This document shows, in pieces, positions 3,221 through 24,335 of a DNA stretch of 64,000 nt. This DNA comes from Candidatus Multivoradales bacterium (GTDB lineage: Bacteria > Acidobacteriota > Thermoanaerobaculia > Multivoradales > Multivoraceae). Every line of letters starts with the position of its first letter. Position 1 is the first letter of the stretch. The stretch lies in NCBI GenBank assembly GCA_965223325.1, contig CBDCWI010000002.1, positions 3,808,001 through 3,872,000 on the forward strand, written 5' to 3'. A program made the translations under genes and the position numbers. The notes under the pieces were generated by a model. That model was not told where the DNA came from, ran no database searches, and saw nothing but the letters and a program-made list of their open reading frames with translations.

Positions 3221-3275
3221 ACCCGCGTCCGCTTCGCTCCCGCGTGCCCATGCGAGTTACCGTCGTCCGTTGGGC
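3193..3275 (+). repeat. attC site
   Basis: GCACAAC...GTTGGGC. Confidence 0.9.
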
Positions 3276-4555: not shown

Positions 4556-4571
4556 GCTTCGTCCGTTAGGT
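4487..4571 (+). repeat. attC site
   Basis: GCACAAC...GTTAGGT. Confidence 0.9.
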
Positions 4572-11766: not shown

Positions 11767-12001
11767 GTGTACTTCGAGATTCTCGGCGAGATCAGCGCGG
11801 TCGAAGTCATCGCGGTTGGCAACTCCATCCGCGAGCTCGAACGGCTCGTGGAGGCCCACGGCGATGGGCGTTGGCGCAAACTGAAAGGCGTCGTTAACAG
11901 TCCGCCTTCACGACGAGTCTGTGTGCACTGCTGAGATACACTGGTACGAGGCTCACGGCATTGGACGTCGTGAGTTCAAGCTCAAACGCATCCTCCGCTA
12001 G
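11767..12001 (+). pseudogene. Small basic protein of an unnamed TA-like pair, frameshifted near 11896
   Basis: Manual translation MYFEILGEISAVEVIAVGNSIRELERL...GRWRKLKG / TVRL...AEIHWYEAHGIGRREFKLKR; homologous to 17020-17223. Confidence 0.75.
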
Positions 12002-12004
12002 CCC

Positions 12005-12226
12005 ATGGAAACCGTCACCTACGTGCTCTGCGTGAACCGCGACGGCTACGAGGCGTCGCTAGAAACACGCAAGATCTACCGGTCCTTACCGGACCTTGAA
12101 GCGTCTCAGCGCTCGCTTATCAGGGTGATCGACGAGTCGGGTGAGGACTACCTTTTCCCGGTGAGCTTCTTCGTACCGATCGAGGTCCCCGAAGCCGCCC
12201 GGGAGGCCTTCGCAGAAGCGTCGTAG
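12005..12226 (+). CDS. Small acidic protein of an unnamed TA-like pair
   Basis: CVNRDGYEASLETRKIY...RVIDESGEDYLFP; paralog at 17228. Confidence 0.85.
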   Translation: METVTYVLCVNRDGYEASLETRKIYRSLPDLEASQRSLIRVIDESGEDYLFPVSFFVPIEVPEAAREAFAEAS

Positions 12227-12264
12227 GTGTGCCGCCGAACACCTATGAGGTCCCCTGACGTCAA

Positions 12265-12720
12265 GCGGCAAACGTCTCTTAGCGGACGCGGTCCGTAACG
12301 GTTTTCGATCAGGTTTCGATATCTGACTTTGGTTTCAGAGTGGGTGCGAGGCGAAGCCTCTGCACCAAACACCTATTGGGCCTCTGCCCTCGCTTTCGCG
12401 ACGACTGCTGGCCTAGGCCAGCGGACCAGAAACACATCGGTGCCCTCGTACCGTCCGATTCAAACCGTGCTGGTCACGCCCGGGAGCGCGCCGGAGTTGG
12501 TTGCCTGGCTCGGGTGAGGGGCAGAGGTCGAGATCGACCGAATGCTGGAAGGTGAGTGGGAAGCCCCGTCGATTCAACCGGTCTGGCTGCCGGCTCTTTG
12601 TGTCTCAGGGCGCGTTGGGTGTCGATGCACCAGGAGCGGGTACTCCGATGAAGCGCCAAGGATGAGATCGGGCCGTGTGGCTCCAGTTAGGCGGAGGGCT
12701 CGAGGCTTCCGACTCGGAGA
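12265..12720 (-). ncRNA. Candidate bridge RNA / seekRNA in the IS 3' non-coding end
   Basis: Non-coding and hairpin-rich; core nearly invariant between IS copies; contains a copy of the donor-end sequence. Boundaries unknown. Confidence 0.7.
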
Positions 12721-13761
12721 TCAGGCGTTCATGAAGGTCGGGAGGTGGAAGGCTTGGTTGTTCTTGAGCATGAAGTAGACGGCGCGGCCCAGCTTGTGGC
12801 GGAGTCACGGCGTAGGCCTTGGTCTTGCCGTGCTTGCGCTTGAGGCGCTCGAGGAGTTTCTTGCCGTGATCCTGGCGCTGGGCGAAGAGCACGGCGGCTT
12901 CGGAGAAGGCCCACTTGAGGTGATGGTTGCCGATCTTGTGGCGACCGCTTCAGGTCCGCTTGCCCGCGGACTCGCGCTGTGGGCGGATCAGCCGGGCATA
13001 GCAAAGTGCTGCACGGTCGGAAATCGCGAGATGTCTTCGATCTCGTACAGCATCGTCATGCCGAGGATGGGACCGACGCCGGGGATCGACGTGAGGCGCG
13101 AGAGCACGGTGGGATCGTGGTCTTTGGCGAGTTCGCGGAGGTACTTCTCGACATCGGAGATGACCTCGTCGAAGGCCGCAATGAGCCGCTGGTTGGCGTC
13201 GATACTTTTCTTCGCTGACGGATCATCGAAGTGATGGAGGAGATCCGTGCGGTCCGACGGCCTGGCGATCCTGCCGAGGGTGGCGTCGCAGTTGTACTGA
13301 GTGTTCGAGGTGCGGATGTGGACGAAGAGCTCGGCGCGCTTGCGTGTGAAGTACTGGCGCCTGCGCAGGAGATCTCTCGCGGCTCTCATCTTCTTGGGAT
13401 AGGTGTAGGCCATTGGAAAGGTCCCGCCTCGCAGGAGGGCGGCGAGCTTGTAGGAATCGACCTTGTCGTTCTTGGCCTTGGCGCCATGGATTGCGCTCAT
13501 ATAGAGGGCATGGCCGAGGACGAATTCGATTCCCTCCTCGGCGCAGAGGTCGGCGAGCCAGTACCAGGAGAACATGCACTCGACACCCACGACCAGATCG
13601 TCTCGGAAGGGTTCGATGGCCTCGAGGAAGGCATCAGGCCGAGCGGGGACGTTTCGGTGATAGATCTTCTCGCCGTCCTCGTCGAGGACGCAGAGGTACA
13701 TCTTGCGAGCATGCAGATCGACACCGCAGGTGTGGCGATGACGGCGGTTGTAGAATCGCAT
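12721..13761 (-). pseudogene. IS110 family transposase, frameshifted
   Basis: DEDD motifs GVDLH, VGVEC, KNDKVDS; frameshift near 13000 and further lesions relative to copy 2. Confidence 0.9.
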
Positions 13762-13843
13762 CGAGGTCTCCTTGAAAAGAGTTTCTGTTTTACCGCTCGG
13801 AAGCTACCGCGTGGGTAGCTCGCCAGGGGACCTCAATGATCTT

Positions 13844-13922
13844 CAACCAGCTCCACAACGACCGGAACCCTCAGCCGCTTCGCGGCCTCCGGGTTCCGGC
13901 GTGTGAGCTTCGTCCGTTCGAC
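13844..13922 (+). repeat. attC site, right part after IS copy 1
   Basis: Nearly identical to attC 4487-4571 from CAACCAGC onward. Confidence 0.9.
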
Positions 13923-13925
13923 AGC

Positions 13926-13954
13926 TTGAGGCGCCACTACAAAGTAGTTACAAT
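13926..13954 (+). promoter_or_regulatory. TA cassette promoter with operator dyads
   Basis: TTGAGG-N17-TACAAT; tandem dyads ACTACAAAGTAGT and TTACAATGTAG. Confidence 0.75.
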
Positions 13955-13960
13955 GTAGCT

Positions 13961-14257
13961 GTGGCTGAGCTTCGGTTCGAGTGGGATGAATCCAAGGCGT
14001 CCTCCGACCAGAGGAAGCACGGCGTCTCCTTCGATGAGGCGTCGACGGTGTTCTTCGATGAGCACGGCCTGTTCATGGCCGATCCGGCTCACTCGGAGGA
14101 GGAAGATCGCTTCTTCATCCTCGGTCTCAGCCAGTCCCTGAGGCTTCTCGTGGTCTGTCACTGCTACCGCGAGAGCGAAGATCTCATACGTCTCATCAGC
14201 GCCCGCAAGGCGGACCGGTCTGAACGGCGCCAGTACAACCAACGGCTACCCAGATGA
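13961..14257 (+). CDS. brnT: BrnT family toxin
   Basis: FEWDESK...KHGVSFDEA...HSEEEDRF...IRLISARKA. Confidence 0.92.
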   Translation: MAELRFEWDESKASSDQRKHGVSFDEASTVFFDEHGLFMADPAHSEEEDRFFILGLSQSLRLLVVCHCYRESEDLIRLISARKADRSERRQYNQRLPR

Positions 14258-14472
14258 AGAAGAACTACGACTTCTCCAAGGCCAAGAAGAACCCTTTCGC
14301 CAAACGCCTCAAGAGGCAGATCACGATTCGGATCGACGGTGGCACTCTCGAGTACTTCCGCCAGCTATCGGACGAGCTAGGTATTCCGTACCAGACCCTG
14401 ATCAACCTCTACCTCGGCGAATGTGCGAGGGACGAGAAGCGACCGTCGCTGAAGTGGGAAGCTACGGCGTGA
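14254..14472 (+). CDS. BrnA/CopG-like antitoxin
   Basis: YDFSKAKKNPFAKRLKRQITIRI...GIPYQTLINLYL; ATGA overlap. Confidence 0.9.
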   Translation: MKKNYDFSKAKKNPFAKRLKRQITIRIDGGTLEYFRQLSDELGIPYQTLINLYLGECARDEKRPSLKWEATA

Positions 14473-14479
14473 CCAGGCT

Positions 14480-14553
14480 GTCGAACAACCACGTGCACTG
14501 GACACGAACCCGCGCTCGCTCGGGTCCGTGCCAGTGAGGTTCGTCCGTTGGGC
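14480..14553 (+). repeat. attC site
   Basis: GTCGAAC...GTTGGGC. Confidence 0.88.
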
Positions 14554-14575
14554 AGCCGGAGTGGGCCACGCGCGC

Positions 14576-14613
14576 ATAAGCCGTTGACTTAGTAGGTCAT
14601 TGGCTTATATGAT
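14576..14613 (+). promoter_or_regulatory. TA cassette promoter with operator dyads
   Basis: TTGACT-N18-TATGAT; inverted repeat ATAAGCC...GGCTTAT. Confidence 0.7.
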
Positions 14614-14619
14614 CTTGGA

Positions 14620-14909
14620 GTGCTGTACGAGTGGGACGACGAGAAGAACCTCGCGAACCAGCGCTCGCACGGCATCTCGTTCGAGGAGGCCACAGACCTC
14701 TTCGAGTCAGGCGTCGAGTACCTCGTGATCTTCGACGCGGATCACTCGGTCGACGAGGATCGCTTCATCGCCATCGGCCCGATCCAGCGCGGCATCATCC
14801 TGGTCGTGTGGACGGAGCGTGACGAGGATGTGGTGAGAATCATCAGCGCCCGCCGGCAACCCGCCATGAGGCAGAGCGCTACCAGGAACGAATGCGAGAC
14901 GGGACATGA
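14620..14909 (+). pseudogene. brnT: BrnT family toxin, frameshifted near 14856
   Basis: YEWDDEKNLANQRSHGISFEEA...RIISARR. Adding one G restores ATRHEAERY and a stop overlapping the next ATG. Confidence 0.8.
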
Positions 14910-15193
14910 ACATCCAGGAACTCTCGGAGGCGCAGTTCAAGTCTGCGATCCCCGCTTCACAACGCCGACGACTCATGAAGGGCAAGTTCGAGAGCGGGGC
15001 CGACGTTTCAGCCCTTCGGCGTTTCGTGGGCCTTTCTCAGGTTCGCTTTTCTCGGGCCCTGGGCATCAGTGTGCACACGCTCCGCAACTGGGAACAGGAC
15101 CGGCGCAAACCAGAGGGCCCGGCGCTGGCCCTGCTTCGCATCGCCGCTCGTCATCCGAGAATCATTCGCGAGAACGTCGAAGAGGCAGCGTGA
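14906..15193 (+). CDS. XRE-family HTH antitoxin
   Basis: LSQVRFSRALGISVHTLRNWEQDRRKPEGPA. Confidence 0.9.
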   Translation: MNIQELSEAQFKSAIPASQRRRLMKGKFESGADVSALRRFVGLSQVRFSRALGISVHTLRNWEQDRRKPEGPALALLRIAARHPRIIRENVEEAA

Positions 15194-15201
15194 GGCCGGC
15201 T

Positions 15202-15284
15202 GCCCAACACGCGGCTCCACGCGACTCGTACCCGTGCTCGCTTCGCTCGCTCGGGAAGTCGCCTGTGATGAAAGTCCGTTCGGC
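15202..15284 (+). repeat. attC site
   Basis: GCCCAAC...GTTCGGC. Confidence 0.88.
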
Positions 15285-15314
15285 GGCATCCGGCCCTGCT
15301 GGTAGAATTGCGAC

Positions 15315-15539
15315 ATGAAGTTGGTCACCGGTACTGTCGTCGATGGCAAGGTCACCCTCCCTGAAGGCGTGTTCGAAGAAGGAAGCGCCGTCGCCGTACT
15401 CGGCGGCGATCCAGCTGAGTCTGTTCCGCTCACTGCAGCCGAGGAAGCAGGGCTCAGCGAGTCGCTAAAGGACATTCGCGAGGGGCGCTACGTCGAGGGT
15501 TCCGATCTCGTCGCTCGCCTCAAGTCTCGCGGTCGTTGA
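15315..15539 (+). CDS. Putative antitoxin
   Basis: Paralog of 9804-10019; overlaps the toxin start. Confidence 0.78.
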   Translation: MKLVTGTVVDGKVTLPEGVFEEGSAVAVLGGDPAESVPLTAAEEAGLSESLKDIREGRYVEGSDLVARLKSRGR

Positions 15540-15841
15540 GCTTCCGGCTCATCGTCGCAGCCCGAGCGGAAGCGCAGATCGAAGCTGCGGCCGAGTGGTG
15601 GTTCGAGAACCGTCCAGGTGCACCGGTCCTGCTCTCGGAAGAAGTGGAGCGAGCGTTCCTCACCATAAGTCGCTTCCCGAGTGCTGGCGAGGCGATAGGC
15701 CACCGGCGCATTGCCGGCCTTCACCGGATTCTTCTCTCTCGGATCTCGTATCACCTGTACTACTCAGTGAACGATGCCGAGGCCACCGTCGAAGTGCTTG
15801 CGATGTGGCACACCAGCAGACGGAGAGGCCCTGCGCTGTGA
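15536..15841 (+). CDS. RelE/ParE family toxin
   Basis: Paralog of 10023-10319; YHLYY...VEVLAMWHTSR. Confidence 0.88.
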   Translation: MSFRLIVAARAEAQIEAAAEWWFENRPGAPVLLSEEVERAFLTISRFPSAGEAIGHRRIAGLHRILLSRISYHLYYSVNDAEATVEVLAMWHTSRRRGPAL

Positions 15842-15847
15842 CACGCC

Positions 15848-15932
15848 GCCGAACAACGTGTTCCAGCAGAAGCGAACCCTGGGCTCGCTACGCTCGCTCA
15901 GGTCTCTCGCTGCTGCACTTGGTCCGTTATGC
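15848..15932 (+). repeat. attC site
   Basis: GCCGAAC...GTTATGC. Confidence 0.88.
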
Positions 15933-15959
15933 GGCTCGAGCGCCGATGGGGTACGACAA

Positions 15960-16934
15960 ATGATTGCGAATCTCGAGCACCGGCGGAAGCAGGTCTTAGA
16001 GACGGTACGAGCGCTGGTTATCACTAGCTGCGTTTGTTCGCTGACAGCGTTGCTTCTTGGTGCGCAGGCCTGCAAATCACAACCGGATCAGCGACCAAGG
16101 TCAGCCGAGTCGCCGCATGAACGGCAGGTCGATCTATTGAATGTTCGTTGGATGCACGGTGCTCAAGACTGTGACGCTGTACGGACAGATCCTGAATACA
16201 TTGAATGGCAGCAAGTTCGGTATCAGGTCAACACGTACATATTCCGTCAGAACAAGTGCTCAAACTACGAGGCGCCTTTCGTGTATCTACTCATAGGCAC
16301 AGATAGGGCACTGCTGATAGACACTGGCGCAACCATCGAAGGCGGTGCGAGTCTGCTCGGTACAGTCAGAGATGTTACCGACGCGCCGCTGATCGTCGCA
16401 CACTCTCATGGTCACGGGGATCATACGCAAGGTGACGGCGCCTTCTCGAGCGCAGAAAACGCCGCGGTCGTAGGCTTAGGGGCGGAGGCCGTGCAGGAGT
16501 TCTTCGGATTCGAGAATTGGCCAAATGATCCAGCTCATCTTGAGCTAGGCAATCGAAGGATAGAACTCTTGCCGATCCCTGGCCACAAAGATGATGACGT
16601 AGCCCTTTATGATCCGACATCGCTGTTCCTGATAACGGGCGACACGTTGTATCCAGGTCGATTGTACGTCGGCGACTGGGGGGACTTTCGTGCCAGCATC
16701 GCAAGGCTGAACGAGTGGATAGATAACAAACCCGTTGCGTACATCATGGGCACTCATATCGAGATGACTGCAACGCCAGACGTCGACTATCCAATTGGAA
16801 CCACTTATCAACCGAATGAGCGCCATTTACCCCTTTCGACTTCTGACATTGCGGTACTACATGAAACTCTCGTCACCATGGAAGTCCCCGAGAGGACATA
16901 TTTGGGCAGTTTCGTTCTCTGGCCTCGCCAATAG
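15960..16934 (+). CDS. MBL-fold metallo-hydrolase, possibly a lipoprotein
   Basis: LIDTG, HSHGHGDH, PGH and TGD motifs. Confidence 0.9.
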   Translation: MIANLEHRRKQVLETVRALVITSCVCSLTALLLGAQACKSQPDQRPRSAESPHERQVDLLNVRWMHGAQDCDAVRTDPEYIEWQQVRYQVNTYIFRQNKCSNYEAPFVYLLIGTDRALLIDTGATIEGGASLLGTVRDVTDAPLIVAHSHGHGDHTQGDGAFSSAENAAVVGLGAEAVQEFFGFENWPNDPAHLELGNRRIELLPIPGHKDDDVALYDPTSLFLITGDTLYPGRLYVGDWGDFRASIARLNEWIDNKPVAYIMGTHIEMTATPDVDYPIGTTYQPNERHLPLSTSDIAVLHETLVTMEVPERTYLGSFVLWPRQ

Positions 16935-16970
16935 ATGGCAGCAGGTTCGGAACCGGAACGTTGGAATATG

Positions 16971-17018
16971 TTCTCGCCGTCCTCGTCGAGGACGCAGAGG
17001 TACATCTTGCGAGTATGC
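16971..17018 (-). mobile_element. Short IS110 transposase fragment
   Basis: Matches 13667-13714 (encodes MYLCVLDEDGE). Confidence 0.85.
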
Positions 17019-17019
17019 T

Positions 17020-17223
17020 GGCGTAGAGGTGATAGCGATCGGCAACGCGATTCGCGAGTTGGAGCGTCTGGTCGAAGTGCACGGCGACGGTCGTTGGCGC
17101 AAGCTCAAGGGTGTAGCCAGCGTCAGGCTGCAAGATGATTCGATGTGCTCCGCTGAGATACACCGGTAGGAGGCTCACGGCATCGGCCGCCGCGAGTTCA
17201 AGCTGAAACGGCTCTTCGACTAA
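17020..17223 (+). pseudogene. Second copy of the unnamed basic protein, 5'-truncated with an internal stop
   Basis: VEVIAIGNAIRELERL...RWRKLKG...AEIHR*EAHGIGRREFKLKR. Confidence 0.75.
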
Positions 17224-17227
17224 ACCT

Positions 17228-17509
17228 ATGGAACAAGCCACCTTCGTCCTCTGCGTCAACCGCGATGGCTACGAGACCTCACTAGAGATCAGGAGGATCT
17301 ACCGGTCCCTCGCTGATCCCGCTGCCGCTGAGAGATCACTCATCCGTGTCGTCGATGAGACCGGCGAGGACTACCTCTTTCCCGCCGACTTCTTCGTTCC
17401 GATCGAGGTTCCACCGCCGCTCAACATCTGGCTGCACTGGATGAGAACCCGCGCTCGCTTCACTCGCTCAGGTCTCGTGCAGCTGAGCTTCGACCATTGT
17501 GTGTCGTAG
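17228..17509 (+). CDS. Second copy of the unnamed acidic protein; native C-terminus lost, runs through attC
   Basis: Homologous to 12005-12226 up to VPIEVP. Confidence 0.75.
   Translation: MEQATFVLCVNRDGYETSLEIRRIYRSLADPAAAERSLIRVVDETGEDYLFPADFFVPIEVPPPLNIWLHWMRTRARFTRSGLVQLSFDHCVS
17419..17502 (+). repeat. Degenerate attC (core GTT changed to ATT)
   Basis: GCTCAAC...ATTGTGT. Confidence 0.75.
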
Positions 17510-17515
17510 AAAAGG

Positions 17516-17941
17516 ATGAGGCTTCTCTTGCGTGGCGCGTCTCTTGGCCTGTTGGCGTTTATCGCGGTGGTTTATTCGCTTGGCGCTGTTGCAGTCGGGC
17601 TGGCACCGATATTCGAATTCGGTGCCGCCAAGGTTCGTGCGGAGCCGATGACCGCGATTTTCCTCGCGATCGTGAACGCCTCGGTGGCGACCGTTGCTGG
17701 AGTAATGTTCGCATCGCTGTTTCGCCGCAACCTGTGGGAGTTCATCGTCTTGTACTGGTCCTCAGGGGCGCTGATGCTTTGGTTTGTCGCGCCAGGGGTA
17801 TCAGCTTCGACCGTCGTCGCCTTGGCCCTTTCGCTCGCCCTAGGTGGCTGGCTGCTTCACAGGGAGCCGCACTGGCTCGGGTTCGACGCCGTGGGAACGC
17901 AGGAACGACACGCGCCACACAACACCTATGAGGTCCCCTGA
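17516..17941 (+). CDS. Hypothetical 4-TM membrane protein
   Basis: AAGGA RBS-like sequence; hydrophobic; stop codon lies within the IS end. Confidence 0.7.
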   Translation: MRLLLRGASLGLLAFIAVVYSLGAVAVGLAPIFEFGAAKVRAEPMTAIFLAIVNASVATVAGVMFASLFRRNLWEFIVLYWSSGALMLWFVAPGVSASTVVALALSLALGGWLLHREPHWLGFDAVGTQERHAPHNTYEVP

Positions 17942-17947
17942 CGTCAA

Positions 17948-18400
17948 GAGGCAAACGTCTCCTAGCGGACGAGGTCCGTGGCGGTTTTCGATCAGTCTCG
18001 AATTCTGACTTTGGTTTCAGAGTGGGTGCGAGGCGAAGCCTCTGCACCAAACACCTATTGGGCCTCTGTCCTCGCTATCGCGACGACTGCTGGCCTAGGC
18101 CAGCGGACCAGAAACACATCGGTGCCCTCGTACCGTCCGATTCAAACCGTGCTGGTCACGCCCGGGAGCGCGCCGGAGTTGGTTGCCTGGCTCGGGTGAG
18201 GGGCAGAGGTCGAGATCGACCGAATGCTGGAAGGTGAGTGGGAAGCCTCGTCCATTCAAACGCTGTGGCTGCCGGCGCTGTGTCCCAGGGCGCGTTGGGT
18301 GTCGATGCACCAGGAGCCGGTGCTCCGATGAAGCGCCAAGGATGGGATCTGGCCGTGTGGCTCCAGTTAGGCGGAGGGCTCGAGGCTTTCCGACTCGAGA
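17948..18400 (-). ncRNA. Candidate bridge RNA / seekRNA, copy 2
   Basis: Two differences from copy 1 over ~240 nt of core. Confidence 0.7.
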
Positions 18401-19357
18401 TCAGGCGTTTATGAATGTCGGGAGGTGGAAGGCTTCGTTGTTCTTCAGCATGAAGTAAACGGCGCGGCCGAGCTTGTGACGCAGAACAGCGTAGGCCTTG
18501 GTCTTGCCGTGCTTGCGCTTGAGGCGATCGAGCAGCTTCTTGCCGTGAGCCTGGCGCTGAGCGAAGAGCACGGCGGCCTCAGAGAAGGCCCACTTGAGAT
18601 GGTGGTTGCCGATCTTGTGGCCGCCGCTGCCGGTTCGCTTGCCTGCGGACTCATGCTGCGGACGAATCAGCCGGGCGTAGGAGGCGAATTGCTGCACGGT
18701 GGGAAACCTCGAGATGTCTTCGATCTCGTAGAGCATCGTCATGCCGAGGATAGGATCGACGCCGGGAATCGAAGTGAGGCGCGACAGTACGCTGGGATCG
18801 TGATCCTTGGCCAGAGCGAAGAGATGCCTCTCGACATCCGAGATCACCTCGTCGAAGGCCGCGATGAGTCGCTGGTTGGCGTCGATGCTCTTCCTAGCCG
18901 AGGGGTCGTCGAAGTGATGGAGAAGATCTGTGCGGTCCGACGGTCTGGCGATCCTGCCGAGCGACGTGTCGCAGTTGTACTGGGTGTTCGACGTACGGAT
19001 GTGGACGAAGAGCTGGGCGCGCTGGCGAGTGAAGTACTGGCGCCTGCGCAGCAGATCCCGCGCTGCACGCATCTTCTTAGGGTAGGTGTAGGCCATAGGA
19101 AAGGTGCCACCTCGCAGCAGCGCTGCCAGCTTGTAGGAATCGACCTTGTCGTTCTTGGCCTTGGCTCCGTGGATCGCGCTCATGTACAAGGCATGGCCGA
19201 GAACGAATTCGATTCCCTCTTCGGCGCAGAGGTCGGCGAGCCAATACCAGGAAAACATGCACTCGACGCCCACGACCAGATCGTTTCGGAAGGATTCGAT
19301 GGCCTCGAGGAAGGCATCAGGCCGAGCGGGGATGTTTCGGTGGTAGATCTTCTCGCC
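18401..19357 (-). pseudogene. IS110 transposase lacking the N-terminal ~29 codons
   Basis: Open frame with KNDKVDS and QHESAGK, but no start codon or first catalytic Asp. Confidence 0.88.
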
Positions 19358-19364
19358 TGATCTT

Positions 19365-19441
19365 CAACCGGGTGAACTCGACATGAACACGCGTCCGCTT
19401 TGCTCCCGCGCGTCCATGCGGGTTACCCTTGTCCGTTCGGC
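19365..19441 (+). repeat. attC site, right part after IS copy 2 (R'' at 17917-17923)
   Basis: Similar to attC 3193-3275. Confidence 0.85.
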
Positions 19442-19463
19442 GGCGAGAACTAGGCCCCAGACG

Positions 19464-19778
19464 ATGTACTACTACACGATAGAAAGCCCGGCCTTCGAGC
19501 CTCATGAGGTAGTCGAGGCCTGCATCGAGTCCGGCGCGACATCCGTTCTTCTTTCTGAGGCCGCCTCGGCCGGAGATTTCATGAAGCTGGAAACGGGTGT
19601 TGCCGGCGAACTGCTGCACAAGCTCTCGGTCTACGGGATTCGCCTGGCCGGCGTCGTTAGCGCCGCGGGGCCTCATCCTCCTCACTTCGAGGAGTTCGTC
19701 CGGGAAGCCAACCGCGGCGAACAGTGGCGATTCTTCTCCAACAGAAGCGATGCTGTGGCATGGCTCGAAAGCGAGTAG
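19464..19778 (+). CDS. DUF4180 family protein
   Basis: DFMKLETGVAGELLHKLSVY...FVREANRG. Confidence 0.85.
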   Translation: MYYYTIESPAFEPHEVVEACIESGATSVLLSEAASAGDFMKLETGVAGELLHKLSVYGIRLAGVVSAAGPHPPHFEEFVREANRGEQWRFFSNRSDAVAWLESE

Positions 19779-19792
19779 CGCGTGCCCTCGCC

Positions 19793-19876
19793 GCCGAACA
19801 ACTGGCTCCAGGCCGGCTCGCACCCGCGCTCGCTTCGCTCGCTCGGGCACGAGCGGCTCACCCTTGTCTGTCGTAT
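19793..19876 (+). repeat. Degenerate attC (core GTT changed to GTC)
   Basis: GCCGAAC...GTCGTAT. Confidence 0.78.
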
Positions 19877-19891
19877 CGCCAGGAGGTACAG

Positions 19892-20206
19892 GTGATCGAT
19901 ACCGAAGCGATGGAGTGGCTCCAGCCATGGGAGAAGGTCGAGGGTTCGGCTGCAAACCTAGAGCGTCAGTTGAATCGCGAGGTCACCGAGGGCCATCCGC
20001 TCTTCGGCCTCAGCGTCACCGCTCTTGCCCGACGCCGCGACACTGACGATGTCGTCTTTGCTGTCGGTGTGCCGACGAGGCGCTTGGCTGCTGTCCACCT
20101 AACGTGGGCCGGTCGCCAAGAGCCGCCCTTTCCAGAGACCGATCTGTTCGAAACGTTCGAGGCGTTCCGAGCCGCTGTCATGGAGCCAGGTCATGCGGAG
20201 GCCTAG
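19892..20206 (+). CDS. Hypothetical protein
   Basis: AGGAGG RBS + GTG; fills the cassette. Confidence 0.78.
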   Translation: MIDTEAMEWLQPWEKVEGSAANLERQLNREVTEGHPLFGLSVTALARRRDTDDVVFAVGVPTRRLAAVHLTWAGRQEPPFPETDLFETFEAFRAAVMEPGHAEA

Positions 20207-20213
20207 CATGGCG

Positions 20214-20296
20214 GTACAACAACCACACTCACTGGACGAGAACCTGCGGCCGCTCCGCGGCCACCGGCCCTCGCCAGTGATGTTCGTCCGTTGGGT
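20214..20296 (+). repeat. attC site
   Basis: GTACAAC...GTTGGGT. Confidence 0.88.
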
Positions 20297-20825
20297 GCCT
20301 AAGGCCCTCTCACTCCTCGTCGTCGTTCTGGCGTTCTTGTTGTCTTGCTCGGTCGTGGAGCGCCCATCCCCGCTCTTCGAGGGCCCACTGTTGACGCTGA
20401 GTCACTATCCGGGAATGGGGCACACGGTGGGGCGTTGGTACAAGCTCTTCCACCCGCGATCGAGAATGCCAGAGGACTGGAGCTTCCAGCTCTATCCGGA
20501 CGCCCGGGTCGAGATGTCTAGGCGTACCTGCAAACATGAGCATGTCTGGAGCGAAGCCCATCGGCTGTCGAGCAAGGACTTCGAAAGGCTCCTGGCACTC
20601 GTTGAGCCACTTCGTGAGCTCGAGCCCGAGACTTATCGAATCTGCTGCGACGATGTTCCCGGAGATATCGTGAAGTTGCATGACATGGGCGCACCCTTCG
20701 AGGTCCAGTTGGAGTACCAGGCGGGCCATCCGGCAGCGGGTAGCGGGCAGCGGGCGATTGCCGACGTCTTCGCCTTTGTAAGATCAAGGTATGAACCCCC
20801 TACGTGGCCAATCTGCCGTTGGTAG
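20295..20825 (+). CDS. Putative lipoprotein
   Basis: Hydrophobic signal ending LLSC. Confidence 0.65.
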   Translation: MPKALSLLVVVLAFLLSCSVVERPSPLFEGPLLTLSHYPGMGHTVGRWYKLFHPRSRMPEDWSFQLYPDARVEMSRRTCKHEHVWSEAHRLSSKDFERLLALVEPLRELEPETYRICCDDVPGDIVKLHDMGAPFEVQLEYQAGHPAAGSGQRAIADVFAFVRSRYEPPTWPICRW

Positions 20826-20832
20826 CGCGGCT

Positions 20833-20917
20833 CCACAACAACCAGCTTCACAACGACCAGAACCCTCAGCCGCTGCGCGGCCTCCGGGTTTCGGCGTGTG
20901 AGGTTCGTCCGTAGGGT
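20833..20917 (+). repeat. Degenerate attC (core GTT changed to GTA)
   Basis: CCACAAC...GTAGGGT; same subtype as 4487. Confidence 0.78.
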
Positions 20918-21557
20918 GGCCAAGGGCGCGTCGCCCGACGTGCATGTCTTTCGCAAAGAAGAGACGGTCAGGATGTACTTCCATTGCCCTGTCTACAGCG
21001 GTGGTCCCGTCAACAGTATCGGGAGCTACAGGCAGGCAACCTTCGCGGCAACATCTAGGGATGGGCTGACCTTCGAGGCGAACCCGGAGGTGTTGGGTAA
21101 CTCGTACTTTCGAGTCTGGCAGCACGACAAGTTCTTCTACGCCGTCGGCATGCCTGGGGTGCTGTATCGATCTCGAGATGGCCTAACCGACTTCGAGGAG
21201 GGGCCCACGCTTTTTGACAAGAGAATGAGGCACTCCGCCGTTATGAAGAAGGGTCAGAAGCTGCTGATCTTCTACTCGAACAAGGGCGACAACCCTGAGG
21301 CCATTTTGTTGTCTACGATCGATCTGCGTGGTGATTGGTCAGAGTGGGTTGCTACGAGCCCGCAGACGCTTCTTCAGCCCGAGCTTCCGTGGGAGGGAGC
21401 GCACCTCCCTCTGATTGCTTCCTCTGACGGAGCGGCGAAGGGGTCCGTGAATCAGCTGCGAGATCCTGCCATCTTCGTTGAAGATGCTCGCTCCTACTTG
21501 CTCTACTCAGTCGCTGGGGAACGGGGAATCGCGATAGCAGAACTTGTATGGGACTAG
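20916..21557 (+). CDS. Beta-propeller glycoside-hydrolase-like protein, probably N-terminally truncated
   Basis: ASPDVH, Asp-box SRDGLTF/SRDGLTDF, LRDPAIF; start uncertain. Confidence 0.6.
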   Translation: MAKGASPDVHVFRKEETVRMYFHCPVYSGGPVNSIGSYRQATFAATSRDGLTFEANPEVLGNSYFRVWQHDKFFYAVGMPGVLYRSRDGLTDFEEGPTLFDKRMRHSAVMKKGQKLLIFYSNKGDNPEAILLSTIDLRGDWSEWVATSPQTLLQPELPWEGAHLPLIASSDGAAKGSVNQLRDPAIFVEDARSYLLYSVAGERGIAIAELVWD

Positions 21558-21573
21558 AACTGACAGCAAGGTC

Positions 21574-21658
21574 GCCCAACAAGGCCGATGAACGCGGGCA
21601 TCAACACGTGCTCGTTCGTTCGCCCGTTTGCTGCCGGTTGTCGGCAGATTCGTTGTGC
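21574..21658 (+). repeat. attC site (divergent)
   Basis: GCCCAAC...GTTGTGC. Confidence 0.7.
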
Positions 21659-21804
21659 GGCTACTGCAGGGGCGTCGTTTGCGCTCTCGGTTGATCTTCT
21701 TGAGGTCCTGGCGCAGAACTTGGGCGACGAGCCTCCCGCTCTGTCTTCGCTTCGCCTTTGGGTCGGCGGGCGAAGGCCGGTGATCCATGAAGCGCCGCCG
21801 AACC

Positions 21805-21986
21805 CCTATGAGGTCCCTGACGTCAAGCGGCAGACGTCCTCCTAGCGGACGCGGTCCGTAGGGTTTTCGATCAGTCTCGAGTCTCCGACTCTGGTTTCAG
21901 AGTGGGTGCGAGGCGAAGCCTCTGCACCCAACACCTATTGGGCCTCGGCCCTCGCTTTCGCGACGACTGCTGGCTTGGGCCAGCGG
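21805..21986 (-). mobile_element. IS110 right-end remnant, copy 3, inserted after R'' GCCGAAC (21797-21803)
   Basis: Homologous to 12242-12424; marks the end of the array. Confidence 0.88.
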
Positions 21987-22107: not shown

Positions 22108-23331
22108 CTAGCCAAACGGGAACGTCGGAAGCGTCAGGACCTCGCAGTCGCCGGCGGTTTGTGGAGCGGCGTGTGCCCTCACCCGCACGATGGCGTTGCC
22201 GCGGCCGTAGGCGCGCAGGTCGTGGGAACCGGCGGGTCTGTGTGGCGTGACCTCGAGGACACCTGCATTGGCCTCGGCGGTTGCGGATAGGAAGCGGTCG
22301 CGGTCGCGTGCGCCGGGGAGCTTCGTCCCTTCGGCGAGAACCCCTCCGAGGGCGCCCTGCCAGAAGCTGTCGGTAAGACCCTGCAGTTGGTTGAGGGCGG
22401 GGCGGACGAAGAGCCAGAAGGTGATCATCGCCGAGGCTGGGTTGCCCGGGAGGCCAAAGACCCAGCCGCCGGCGTGAGTCGCCGCGACGAGTGGCTTCCC
22501 GGGTTGGATGGCGACTGCGTCGAAGAGAACCTCGCAACCGCATCCGCTGAGGACGTCTTCAACCAGGTCGTAGTCGCCCGCTGAGACGCCGCCGGTGAGC
22601 AGAAGAACGTCGCTTTCGAGCCCGGTTTCGATTCGCGCCTTCAGATCAGCGAGATCGTCGCGTGCGATGCCGAGCAGCTCGACGGATTCCGCGTAGCGGC
22701 CGGCAGCGGTCTCGAAGAAGGCGCTGTGGGAGTCGCGCAGCTGGCCCGGGCCGGGTTCCTCGTCGGCCGCTACGACTTCATCGCCGGTGGTCAACATCGC
22801 GACCTTTGGCCTCCGGGTGACGTCTACTTCGGCGATGCCCTGCGACGCGAGCACTCCCAACGCCGCGTCGGTGAGGAGCGTTCCGGGTTCGAACAGGGGT
22901 CCGCCAGCGGCAACCACTTCGGCCCGTCGGCGAATGTGTGAGCCGGCCGTCTCCACAGCATCGAAGCGCACGCGCTCCTGGCCGGCGTCGGTGAGCTCGA
23001 AGGGCACGACGCGATCGGCGGTTTCGGGGACTGGGGCGCCGGTCATGATGCGAACTGCGCTCCCGGGCGCCATTGCGTACCCTGGTGGGTCACCGGCAGC
23101 GATCACGGCGTCCACCGTTCGCACCTCTCCGGCTGCCGGTTCACCCTTGTCCTGGGCCAGCGCGAGTGCGTAGCCATCCATCGCCGAGACGTCGTGGTGG
23201 GGCACGTCGGTGGTCGCGGCGACGGCTTGCGCGGTCACCCTCCCGGCGGCGTCCCGACGCCGGACGGTTTCGGCGGCAAGCGGTTCAAGGTGCTCGGCGA
23301 GGCGATTCCAGGCTTCACGAGGGTGGAACAT
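22108..23331 (-). CDS. moeA: Molybdopterin molybdotransferase
   Basis: SAMDGYA, IMTGAPVP, TGDE, TGGVSAG, QPGKP, GLPGNP. Confidence 0.95.
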   Translation of the reverse strand: MFHPREAWNRLAEHLEPLAAETVRRRDAAGRVTAQAVAATTDVPHHDVSAMDGYALALAQDKGEPAAGEVRTVDAVIAAGDPPGYAMAPGSAVRIMTGAPVPETADRVVPFELTDAGQERVRFDAVETAGSHIRRRAEVVAAGGPLFEPGTLLTDAALGVLASQGIAEVDVTRRPKVAMLTTGDEVVAADEEPGPGQLRDSHSAFFETAAGRYAESVELLGIARDDLADLKARIETGLESDVLLLTGGVSAGDYDLVEDVLSGCGCEVLFDAVAIQPGKPLVAATHAGGWVFGLPGNPASAMITFWLFVRPALNQLQGLTDSFWQGALGGVLAEGTKLPGARDRDRFLSATAEANAGVLEVTPHRPAGSHDLRAYGRGNAIVRVRAHAAPQTAGDCEVLTLPTFPFG

Positions 23332-23456
23332 CGCCCCGATTCTTACCACGCTCGGTCGATTCAGCCCCGCCCCTGCTTTGTTGGGAAGAATGCGCAAGTG
23401 CGCATGGGTACCCCGTGCTGGTTGTCGACTCTTGCGGTCGATAGACTCCAGGCAGT

Positions 23457-24335
23457 GTGATTTCAGATCAAGCCCGAAACAAGAACCTGTCGACTGGTCC
23501 CACCCCCCCTCGAGGTGTGCGGCGGGCGCGTCAGCGCTATCAGTACCGCGCCGAACTCGGTGAGCTGGGCCTGGCCAAGATCCTCTACACGATCCACCAG
23601 CACGACGTGCCTGGGGTCGTGCGCGTCGTTCATGACGGGGCGGTTCGGCAGATCTACGTCCGCAATGGCGAGATCGTGCATGCCGCATCCTCGGAGCTCT
23701 CCGACTCGCTTGGCTCCTGGCTGATAGAGGCTGGTCTGATCTCCAGCGACGAATACCAGCAGGTCAGGCGCCAGGGTCGCTCGACGAGTCGTCCGATGGG
23801 CCAGCGCCTGATCGACCGGGGTTTGCTTTCGCCGTCGGTCGTTGGTTCGGCCCTCAAGCGTCATGTCGAGGCAATCGTCTGGCGGACGTTCGCCTGGGAA
23901 CGCGGCGAGGTCACCTTCATGATCGGCGAATTCGATGAGCCGGTCCCGAGCACGATCCGGCTGCCCGTGCGGCTGGCCATCAAGTTGGGAATTCGACAGT
24001 TCGCACGCCCGTTGGAGCTGGTGGCCAAGCTGGGCCCGGACAGTCGCTACGCACTGCGTGCCGATGTCGAGGACCTGATTGCGCTCGAGTTCGACAGTGT
24101 CGAGATGGGGCTGATCAAGAGAATCGACGGCAGGGCGAGGGTTCGGGATCTGTGCTCTTCGAAAGAGCTATCCCCGGTCGACAGCGCTAGAATCCTCTAC
24201 GCGCTGCGGGTGCTCAACCTCTTGCGTACGGAGAGAGAGGCCTCGGCAGATGGCGCGGCCCGCAGTCCCGGTTCCCGGAGGCCCGGCTCTCAGAGTTCAG
24301 GGTCGGGGGGGATCAGGATCCGGCTGTCGACCTAA
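23457..24335 (+). CDS. DUF4388-domain protein
   Basis: IYVRNGEIVHAAS...LGSWLIEAGLIS...FAWERGEVTF. Confidence 0.75.
   Translation: MISDQARNKNLSTGPTPPRGVRRARQRYQYRAELGELGLAKILYTIHQHDVPGVVRVVHDGAVRQIYVRNGEIVHAASSELSDSLGSWLIEAGLISSDEYQQVRRQGRSTSRPMGQRLIDRGLLSPSVVGSALKRHVEAIVWRTFAWERGEVTFMIGEFDEPVPSTIRLPVRLAIKLGIRQFARPLELVAKLGPDSRYALRADVEDLIALEFDSVEMGLIKRIDGRARVRDLCSSKELSPVDSARILYALRVLNLLRTEREASADGAARSPGSRRPGSQSSGSGGIRIRLST

Follow-up and report, generated by a model that had tools for sequence, protein, structure and literature searches.

A decayed IS1111-type lineage inserted at the R'' end of attC sites in a chromosomal integron, most likely under RNA guidance

What brings an insertion sequence (IS) to the same nucleotide of one recombination site after another, always facing the same way? 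The question is raised by a 64,000-nucleotide stretch of the genome of a Candidatus Multivoradales bacterium (assembly GCA_965223325.1, contig CBDCWI010000002.1, positions 3,808,001 to 3,872,000), called here the window, in which copies of one IS interrupt the attC sites of a chromosomal integron. Positions without a prefix are those of the window, while C1 and C2 denote the two contigs of the genome, C2 being the one that holds the window. We consider it very probable that the element represents a decayed IS1111-type lineage, belonging to a large environmental clade that inserts at the R'' end of attC and is most likely RNA-guided.

As the original prediction had held, three insertions in the window lie directly after the AAC of an R'' box and are antisense to the array, with a C adjoining the third. 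Copy 1 (12242-13845, minus strand) is full length, 1,604 bp including one CA, and its transposase gene is broken. It splits an attC whose left half, the R'' box GCCGAAC plus an A, is found at 12234-12241 on the plus strand, and whose remainder, on the same strand at 13846-13925, extends through the R' box GTCCGTT at 13912-13918 (match to an attC profile at C2:3821844-3821925, profile positions 19-98). With a slash marking each junction, the sequence reads ...GCCGAAC-A(12241)/CCTATG...GATCTT-CA(13844-13845)/ACCAGC, and the CA at 12240-12241 is the core common to copy 1 and attC. Excising 12242-13845 in silico yields GCCGAACAACCAGCTCCACAACGACC..., in agreement with the intact attCs that end at 4561 and 20907. 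Copy 2 (17925-19366, minus strand) has suffered an internal deletion of ~160 bp that takes out the left inverted repeat, the leader and the first ~55 codons. Its junctions read ...CACAAC-A(17924)/CCTATG...TGATCTT-CA(19365-19366)/ACCGGG, the rest of the split attC follows at 19367-19444 on the plus strand (profile match C2:3827365-3827444), and removal of the copy regenerates an attC resembling that ending at 3265. It had been claimed that CA flanks copies 1 and 2 and that taking away the IS plus one CA leaves a normal attC, and the agreement of the rebuilt sites with intact attCs bears this out. Copy 3 (21805-21986, minus strand) is reduced to the final ~182 nt of the right end, which include a segment discussed below as B2. 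Here the junction is AAC(21801-21803)-C(21804)/CCTATG, with C rather than A as the adjoining base, similarity to copy 1 ends at 21986, and DNA foreign to the array follows, with a moeA-like gene at 22108-23688 on the minus strand.

A DNA search with the element across both contigs added four pieces outside the window: two full-length copies, at C2:4398883-4400496 (transposase gene with a one-base insertion) and C2:4167703-4169310 (transposase gene with one TAG), and two right-end fragments, at C2:4171119-4171601 and C1:2124996-2125287. Compared to copy 1, the other copies are 90-96% identical. All seven right-end junctions lie in an attC, in the form ...YYNAAC/A (once /C), directly 3' of a cassette stop codon, all four left-end junctions run into the remainder of an attC, and all seven insertions are antisense to the cassette array. 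The two other full copies also have CA on both sides. That one attC position is hit repeatedly, as had been proposed from three cases, thus holds for seven junctions, all in attC clusters, at the same nucleotide and in the same orientation. No copy outside attC clusters, the contrary case named beforehand, was present among the seven insertions in this whole-genome search. Since the seven left flanks are all different, these are separate insertion events, and seven independent junctions at one attC nucleotide in one orientation cannot be due to chance.

The placement of the element within the IS110/IS1111 family follows from several concordant features. The transposase gene of copy 1 (12721-13761, minus strand), which encodes DEDD and Transposase_20 domains, is interrupted by small indels and by two in-frame TGA codons. 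A 257-amino-acid piece of it matches PF01548, the N-terminal RuvC-like DEDD domain (E=2e-14), to which copy 2 gives a partial match, as it lacks the N terminus. PF02371, the C-terminal Transposase_20 domain, is matched by copy 2 (E=5.7e-19), whose remaining 290-codon frame (18401-19273) is open, and the NCBIfam model NF033542, "IS110 family RNA-guided transposase", scores 168.7 bits (cut-off 140). There is no target duplication beyond the shared core, and removal of the element with one core restores the empty site. The 12-bp subterminal inverted repeats that had been reported for copy 1 are indeed present, the right-end one, TGAGGTCCCCTG, at 12246-12257 and its complement at the left end at 13824-13835. 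They are inset 4 and 8 nt from the core, and their length falls within the 7-17 bp expected for inset IS1111 repeats. The noncoding flanks of the gene are unequal, 479 nt downstream versus ~82 nt upstream. The IS1111 group is defined by subterminal repeats and by a noncoding region downstream of the gene (PMC11187229, PMC11208160), and it is therefore the group to which the repeats and the 479-nt region assign the element, in keeping with the type first proposed. The gene is broken in all four copies that retain it, so that the lineage is extinct in this genome. A search of the genome at the protein level revealed no further gene of this lineage beyond a diverged remnant at C2:980938-981182. 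This short IS110-family gene remnant (53-59% amino-acid identity over ~85 residues) is near attC matches at C2:982435-982741.

The element is one member of a wide group. Relatives at 80 loci, with 43-73% amino-acid identity, are found in metagenome-assembled genomes labelled Acidobacteriota, Desulfobacterota, Planctomycetota, Gammaproteobacteria and others, and plasmids of Vibrio, Alteromonas, Pseudoalteromonas and Ca. Manganitrophus carry others. The number of proteins that match at E<=1e-20, typically of 347 amino acids, is at least 7,897. Closer to home, a genome of the same genus holds one copy at 75% DNA identity, and there is no copy in 27 of the 30 other related genomes searched. The relatives share a common end geometry, in which the core is followed by 8 nt and the repeat at one end, while the repeat is followed by 4 nt and the core at the other. 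Their targets conform as well. Per-position counts over 45 insertions give R-Y-Y-Y-A-A-C to the left of the core, which is the canonical R'' box. IS1111 elements that seek out attC are hence common in environmental bacteria of many phyla, beyond class 1 integrons.

How could such an element find its site? Several IS1111 members, including the attC-targeting ISKpn4 and ISPst6, make an RNA from the 3' region that copurifies with the transposase (PMC11187229), and bridge RNAs of IS1111 elements have been predicted in the right end (PMC11208160). In the seekRNAs of ISEc11, ISPa11, ISKpn4 and ISPst6, a match to the top strand lies 5' of a match to the bottom strand, and the RNA is required for excision as well as for insertion (PMC11187229). 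The mechanism here is most likely this published one. In outline, the IS would excise as a circle, whose joined ends would make a promoter with a -35 contributed by the right end. The sequence expected of that -35 is in place: a minus-strand TTGACG at 12264-12259, 17 nt from the right-end core and directed out of the element, which the original prediction had already related to the circle junction, and of which TTGAC is conserved at that distance in all 17 elements of an alignment (17 of 17). Such conservation agrees with a promoter that arises where the circle closes; by eye, the left end of this element supplies a weak -10. The transcript would cover the transposase gene and continue into the 479-nt 3' region (12242-12720, minus strand), the presumed source of a seekRNA or bridge RNA, whose layout is conserved in relatives. 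RNA from this region would bind the transposase and base-pair with DNA through two candidate guides. One, T1 (CCGCCUAAC, 12686-12694, minus strand), in the same sense as the R'' box and ~35 nt past the stop codon, is a copy of the RYYYAAC box that would pair with one target strand. The other, B2 (AAUAGG-UG-UUUGG, 12365-12377, minus strand), would pair with the opposite strand across right end, core and target. Recombination at the shared CA/TG core would then leave CA on both sides and fix the orientation. The R' ends of these attCs read CCG-TT and offer no TG core. Since R' reads CG-TT instead of TG-TT, it would be spared and orientation would be set by sequence.

The evidence for T1 and B2 differs in strength. 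T1 reproduces the R'' box with its flank in RNA sense, and could pair with the strand that is continuous with the sense strand of the element. Counted by hand from the flanks, it matches the seven targets in 9, 8, 8, 8, 7, 7 and 6 of 9 positions. Because T1, in the noncoding region of the element, carries the R'' sequence, the R'' box can be read by RNA pairing rather than by structure, as published for ISKpn4 and ISPst6 (PMC11187229). In relatives, the T1 consensus is G-Y-C-U-A-A-C, and T1 follows targets that depart from the usual: where the target is TTCAAAAC, in L069, T1 reads UUCAAAAC, and where it is CCAAC, in L046, T1 reads CCAAC. Over 45 insertions, T1 and target agree at 176 of 405 variable positions, compared to 148 after shuffling (none of 10,000 shuffles reaches 176), and leaving out this genome gives 139 of 342 compared to 120 (32 of 10,000 reach 139). 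This is moderate evidence that T1 covaries with the target. For B2, in which the final five bases of the right end recur together with the core and TT, the case that it covaries with the right end in relatives of 45-73% identity is strong. It is identical to the right-end junction of copy 1 at 11 of 13 positions, which 1 of 2000 shuffles equals. Across 15 elements whose ends had been placed independently of B2 (in 13 from the repeat geometry and in two by hand, with two misregistered rows counting as misses), 62 of 75 precore positions are equal, versus 50.6 when shuffled, a score that 9 of 10,000 shuffles reach. The variants ATATG, ATAAG, ATAGG and ATAGA each appear in both B2 and right end, and in L069, where the core is GG at both ends, B2 also has GG. 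A guide that spans right end and target would fit the published need for a correct flank in excision.

Core mismatches deserve a separate comment. At the right end, copy 3 and 10 of 43 relatives have a core of GG in place of TG (L021, L030, L040, L042, L043, L050, L051, L069, L070 and L080, of which L040 and L043 are one insertion sampled twice). B2 stays UG in all of these except L069. The left end, where placed, has TG in L021, L030 and L040/L043, and GG in L069 and L070. A mismatch at the first core base thus seems to be tolerated, which would make the two junctions differ.

The 3' region contains two further motifs. B1, a second ..UG-UUUCUGG motif (12426-12438, minus strand), includes GUUUCUAG, conserved in relatives. 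T2, a second ..CCAAC-U.. motif (12493-12503, minus strand), matches the right flank of copy 1 at 10 of 11 positions, a score reached by 52 of 2000 shuffles; we regard this as weak and do not claim T2 as a guide. T2 and B1 are 55 nt apart, a UUGAAUCG-type motif occurs twice (~12446-12456 and ~12575-12585), and all of these are conserved in relatives. The 3' RNA region may be built of two related modules. Folding adds little: around B2, RNAalifold proposes a hairpin of five pairs, three of them with compensatory changes, on a poor alignment, and the fold of the whole 491-nt region is uninformative (z = -1.73).

Several points weigh against RNA guidance as just described, or against its sufficiency. 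That an RNA is made, bound and guiding is something we infer from the DNA sequence alone. T1 and B2 are ~310 nt apart, whereas published short seekRNAs measure 70-100 nt. Rfam returned no family over the whole window at gathering score and none on 12200-13900 at E<=1. Neither eye inspection nor a column scan with five anchors in 25 elements found a guide for the left target flank or the left end, and the only signal that rose above noise in that scan, between B2 and the right end, is partly circular, as right ends were located there using B2. The covariation of T1 is modest at each position (at best 15 of 25, with 11.8 expected), and its shuffles leave in the base composition that host and element share. 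A further objection is numerical. When AAC-A and 7 or more of 9 matches to T1 are required, 28 sites lie in or near attC and 1,085 are flagged outside, a ~40-fold excess of the latter. The 1,085 include three of the occupied junctions, and the remaining ~1,080 are all empty. T1 pairing alone under-predicts the specificity and cannot be the whole story.

This gap could be closed by a purge of insertions in genes, by an unfound guide or by recognition of a folded site. The original prediction had suggested that recognition may use attC structure, on the ground that the targets share little beyond AACAACC. This ground does not hold, as the shared part is found mainly to the left of the insertion point and consists of the R'' box and a G+C-rich flank (CCGCCNAAC, 6-9 of 9 positions). 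The idea itself is not needed to account for the reading of R''. Still, target choice might work mainly or additionally via folded or single-stranded attC, the hairpin being recognized and pairing setting the exact point. We judge this improbable, if well short of negligible. Besides the ~1,080 equally T1-matched sites outside attC that are unoccupied, it could appeal to the three of seven targets that match T1 in only 6-7 of 9 positions, and to a post hoc two-flank motif (T1 in at least 6 of 9 plus AACAANCRG) that retrieves 6 free and 4 occupied attCs versus 40 free sites elsewhere. Other IS1111 members also reside in hairpin-forming repeats (REP, attC), described as "potentially folded" (PMC11187229), and the T1 sequence would itself be that of the R''-pairing arm of a folded attC. 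However, for ISKpn4 and ISPst6 the seekRNA matches to both target strands are taken to explain target choice, and reprogramming of the seekRNA has been shown for other IS1111 members (PMC11187229). The purging of insertions in genes would inflate apparent specificity, and the missing information could come from a left-flank guide that escaped us. Nor do relatives speak clearly for a fold, as 12 of their 25 rebuilt empty sites fold a GTTNNNN block onto an AAC block 40-140 nt away, in a test so crude that it misses one of three true attCs used as positives. Complementarity between R'' and R' over 8 nt reaches 7 of 8 in 2 of 16 relatives, a threshold that is too strict given that the true attC of copy 1 scores 6 of 8. 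In a more specific version, guide pairing is necessary and insufficient, the element recognizes attC by displacing the R''-pairing arm in a folded or single-stranded site, and array ends are graveyards of the element. Arm displacement would explain the ~1,080 equally matched empty sites, and we put this version forward as a speculative and rather doubtful proposal.

Whichever way the site is read, targeted transposition has to be set against passive spread of the element. Element-bearing cassettes could have been duplicated or moved by the integrase, without repeated transposition. Copy 1 and the copy at C2:4398883-4400496 do sit in near-identical attC types, and part of the cassette to the left of copy 1 recurs at 17020-17440. 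Yet the seven left flanks, which are cassette ends, all differ, the four right flanks diverge past R', the copies are 4-10% different from copy 1, and relatives in many phyla have the same junction at unrelated sites. We therefore find this explanation very unlikely. Least credible of all, to the point that we set it aside, is insertion without site specificity followed by selection that leaves only the attC insertions: attC is noncoding and an insertion there is probably cheap for the host, but one nucleotide and one orientation are used in seven of seven cases, the target heptamer is identical across 45 insertions of relatives, and site specificity is known for the family (PMC11187229). Targeted insertion, with RNA pairing to the R'' box as its most likely basis, remains our preferred reading, and the relatives supply a natural series of guide and target variants for how an RNA-guided recombinase reads a degenerate, hairpin-forming site.

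The host of these insertions is a chromosomal integron, with an integron integrase adjoining the attC array. Its cassette array covers 1-21804 on the plus strand, as delimited by attC alignment, an nhmmer attC profile and an integrase model. The integrase gene intI (C2:3807261-3808190, plus strand, in an open frame of 400 amino acids) matches TIGR02249 at 422.7 bits (cut-off 265). Its 3' end occupies 1-190 of the window and is followed by an attI-like region (~190-515) and then by cassettes, each closed by an attC, on the same strand as intI. In the window, ~22 plus-strand attCs have the R' end GTCCGTT. The nhmmer profile, built from 19 attCs of this window, finds 52 attCs in the genome (6.69 Mb, two contigs): 27 in this array (C2:3808963-3828920), 14 in an integrase-less cluster at C2:4.160-4.170 Mb, three at C2:4.399-4.402 Mb, two at C1:2.123 Mb and six elsewhere. 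The 335 bp after intI (190-520) are 77% identical to C2:4159234-4159564, directly before the integrase-less cluster at 4.16 Mb, and both stretches terminate in ...TTGAATAACACTGTT, with (G/C)GGCGG beyond the boundary. The arrangement suggests an attI-like site and its crossover point, occurring twice, once without an integrase. The cassettes contain GNAT, DUF and toxin-antitoxin genes and one gene for a metallo-beta-lactamase (MBL)-fold protein. The cassettes beside the insertions (13961-14472, 14906-15193, 15536-15841, 15774-16934) hold BrnT/BrnA-like, MqsA-like and ParE-like toxin-antitoxin genes and the predicted MBL-fold hydrolase gene (PF00753, E=1e-11).

A further trace of the element, overlooked in the first reading, is a 51-bp remnant of the transposase 5' region (16968-17018, minus strand, 96% identity). 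It lies between the MBL-fold cassette gene, whose stop is at 16934, and a partial cassette copy, as 17020-17440 resembles 11800-12226, the cassette that precedes copy 1. The MBL-fold cassette is without an attC of its own, and the remnant occupies the place where one is expected. From these sequences it looks like a fourth insertion in the window, nearly erased by deletions. Contigs from four sequencing runs over 11900-14100 showed no empty-site form of copy 1, being only short unitigs that are uninformative on excision. The contig branches lead to paralogous attCs or other copies, and their joints match the deletion in copy 2 and the 51-bp remnant.

The position of the copies within their clusters is another observation that merits attention. 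Copy 3 and the copies at 4.171 Mb, 4.399 Mb and C1:2.125 Mb, four insertions out of seven, each occupy the last detectable attC of their cluster. The three fragments consisting only of a right end are all terminal, with unrelated DNA next to them (moeA-like, GNAT/DUF3604 and Y1-transposase-like genes). Were the hits spread at random over the attCs of each cluster, an occupied site at the end of all four clusters would have a chance of ~0.002, by arithmetic from cluster sizes. On one reading, the integrase is unable to remove an element from the last attC, as it finds no partner site further downstream; on another, deletions that started in the element trimmed the arrays. If true, array ends become graveyards of these elements, marking where arrays stop. 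It is a reasonable inference, made already in the original prediction, that each insertion blocks excision at that attC, and a suspicion that IS1111-attC insertions immobilize cassettes or freeze arrays is in print as a hypothesis (PMC11616780). Elements that split attC may thus freeze cassette arrays, clinical integrons included. For this genome itself the practical point is small, since the dead copies are fossils of old array events.

The closest known systems are the IS1111-attC elements ISPa21, ISPst6, ISKpn4 and ISPa25, a group reportedly described by Tetu and Holmes in 2008 and by Post and Hall in 2009, and said to have been defined as monophyletic. They have IS1111-type organization, as does the element studied here, and their insertions likewise lie antisense to the array, close to the 5' (R'') end of attC (PMC3001079). 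Their seekRNA, made from the 3' region, matches both target strands (PMC11187229), for which T1 and B2 are candidate counterparts by sequence. Differences are that the host here is a large integron of the chromosome, its intI on the same strand as the cassettes, rather than a clinical class 1 integron, and that all copies here are dead. The four named elements are compared through their published descriptions. Among 72,556 plasmids searched by tblastn with the protein studied here and a relative from Vibrio, no element of Pseudomonas or Klebsiella exceeded 34% identity, and the clade may be separate from the named IS1111-attC elements. Two matches were considered as IS1111-attC elements and rejected: one on a Klebsiella plasmid (22% identity), which is outside any integron, and one in P. 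aeruginosa (34%), whose flanks, when read, contain no attC-like site.

Other comparisons bear on mechanism. ISEc11 and ISPa11 resemble the element in their DEDD transposase of ~340 amino acids, subterminal repeats and 3' noncoding region, and the order of matches in their seekRNA, top strand 5' of bottom strand, is like that of T1 and B2. They need the flanking target for excision (PMC11187229), which a B2 spanning right end and target would fit. They differ in having other targets and RNAs of 70-100 nt, whereas ~310 nt separate T1 from B2 here, and the 479-nt region around them has two T-like and two B-like motifs. IS621, from the IS110 group, shares a DEDD recombinase, a core dinucleotide in donor and target, and RNA guidance, presumed here, with guides that read both strands (PMC11208160). 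In IS621, however, the RNA is encoded in the left end, upstream of the gene, with two simple internal loops, and the repeats are only 2-3 bp, whereas the region here is downstream. Group IIC-attC introns also insert near the 5' end of attC, antisense and often in the last attC (PMC3001079), but they are retroelements that use a different mechanism, and the element described here has no reverse transcriptase. It is a new and extinct member of the known attC-targeting IS1111 type, and it fits the seekRNA mechanism already published for ISKpn4 and ISPst6 (PMC11187229).

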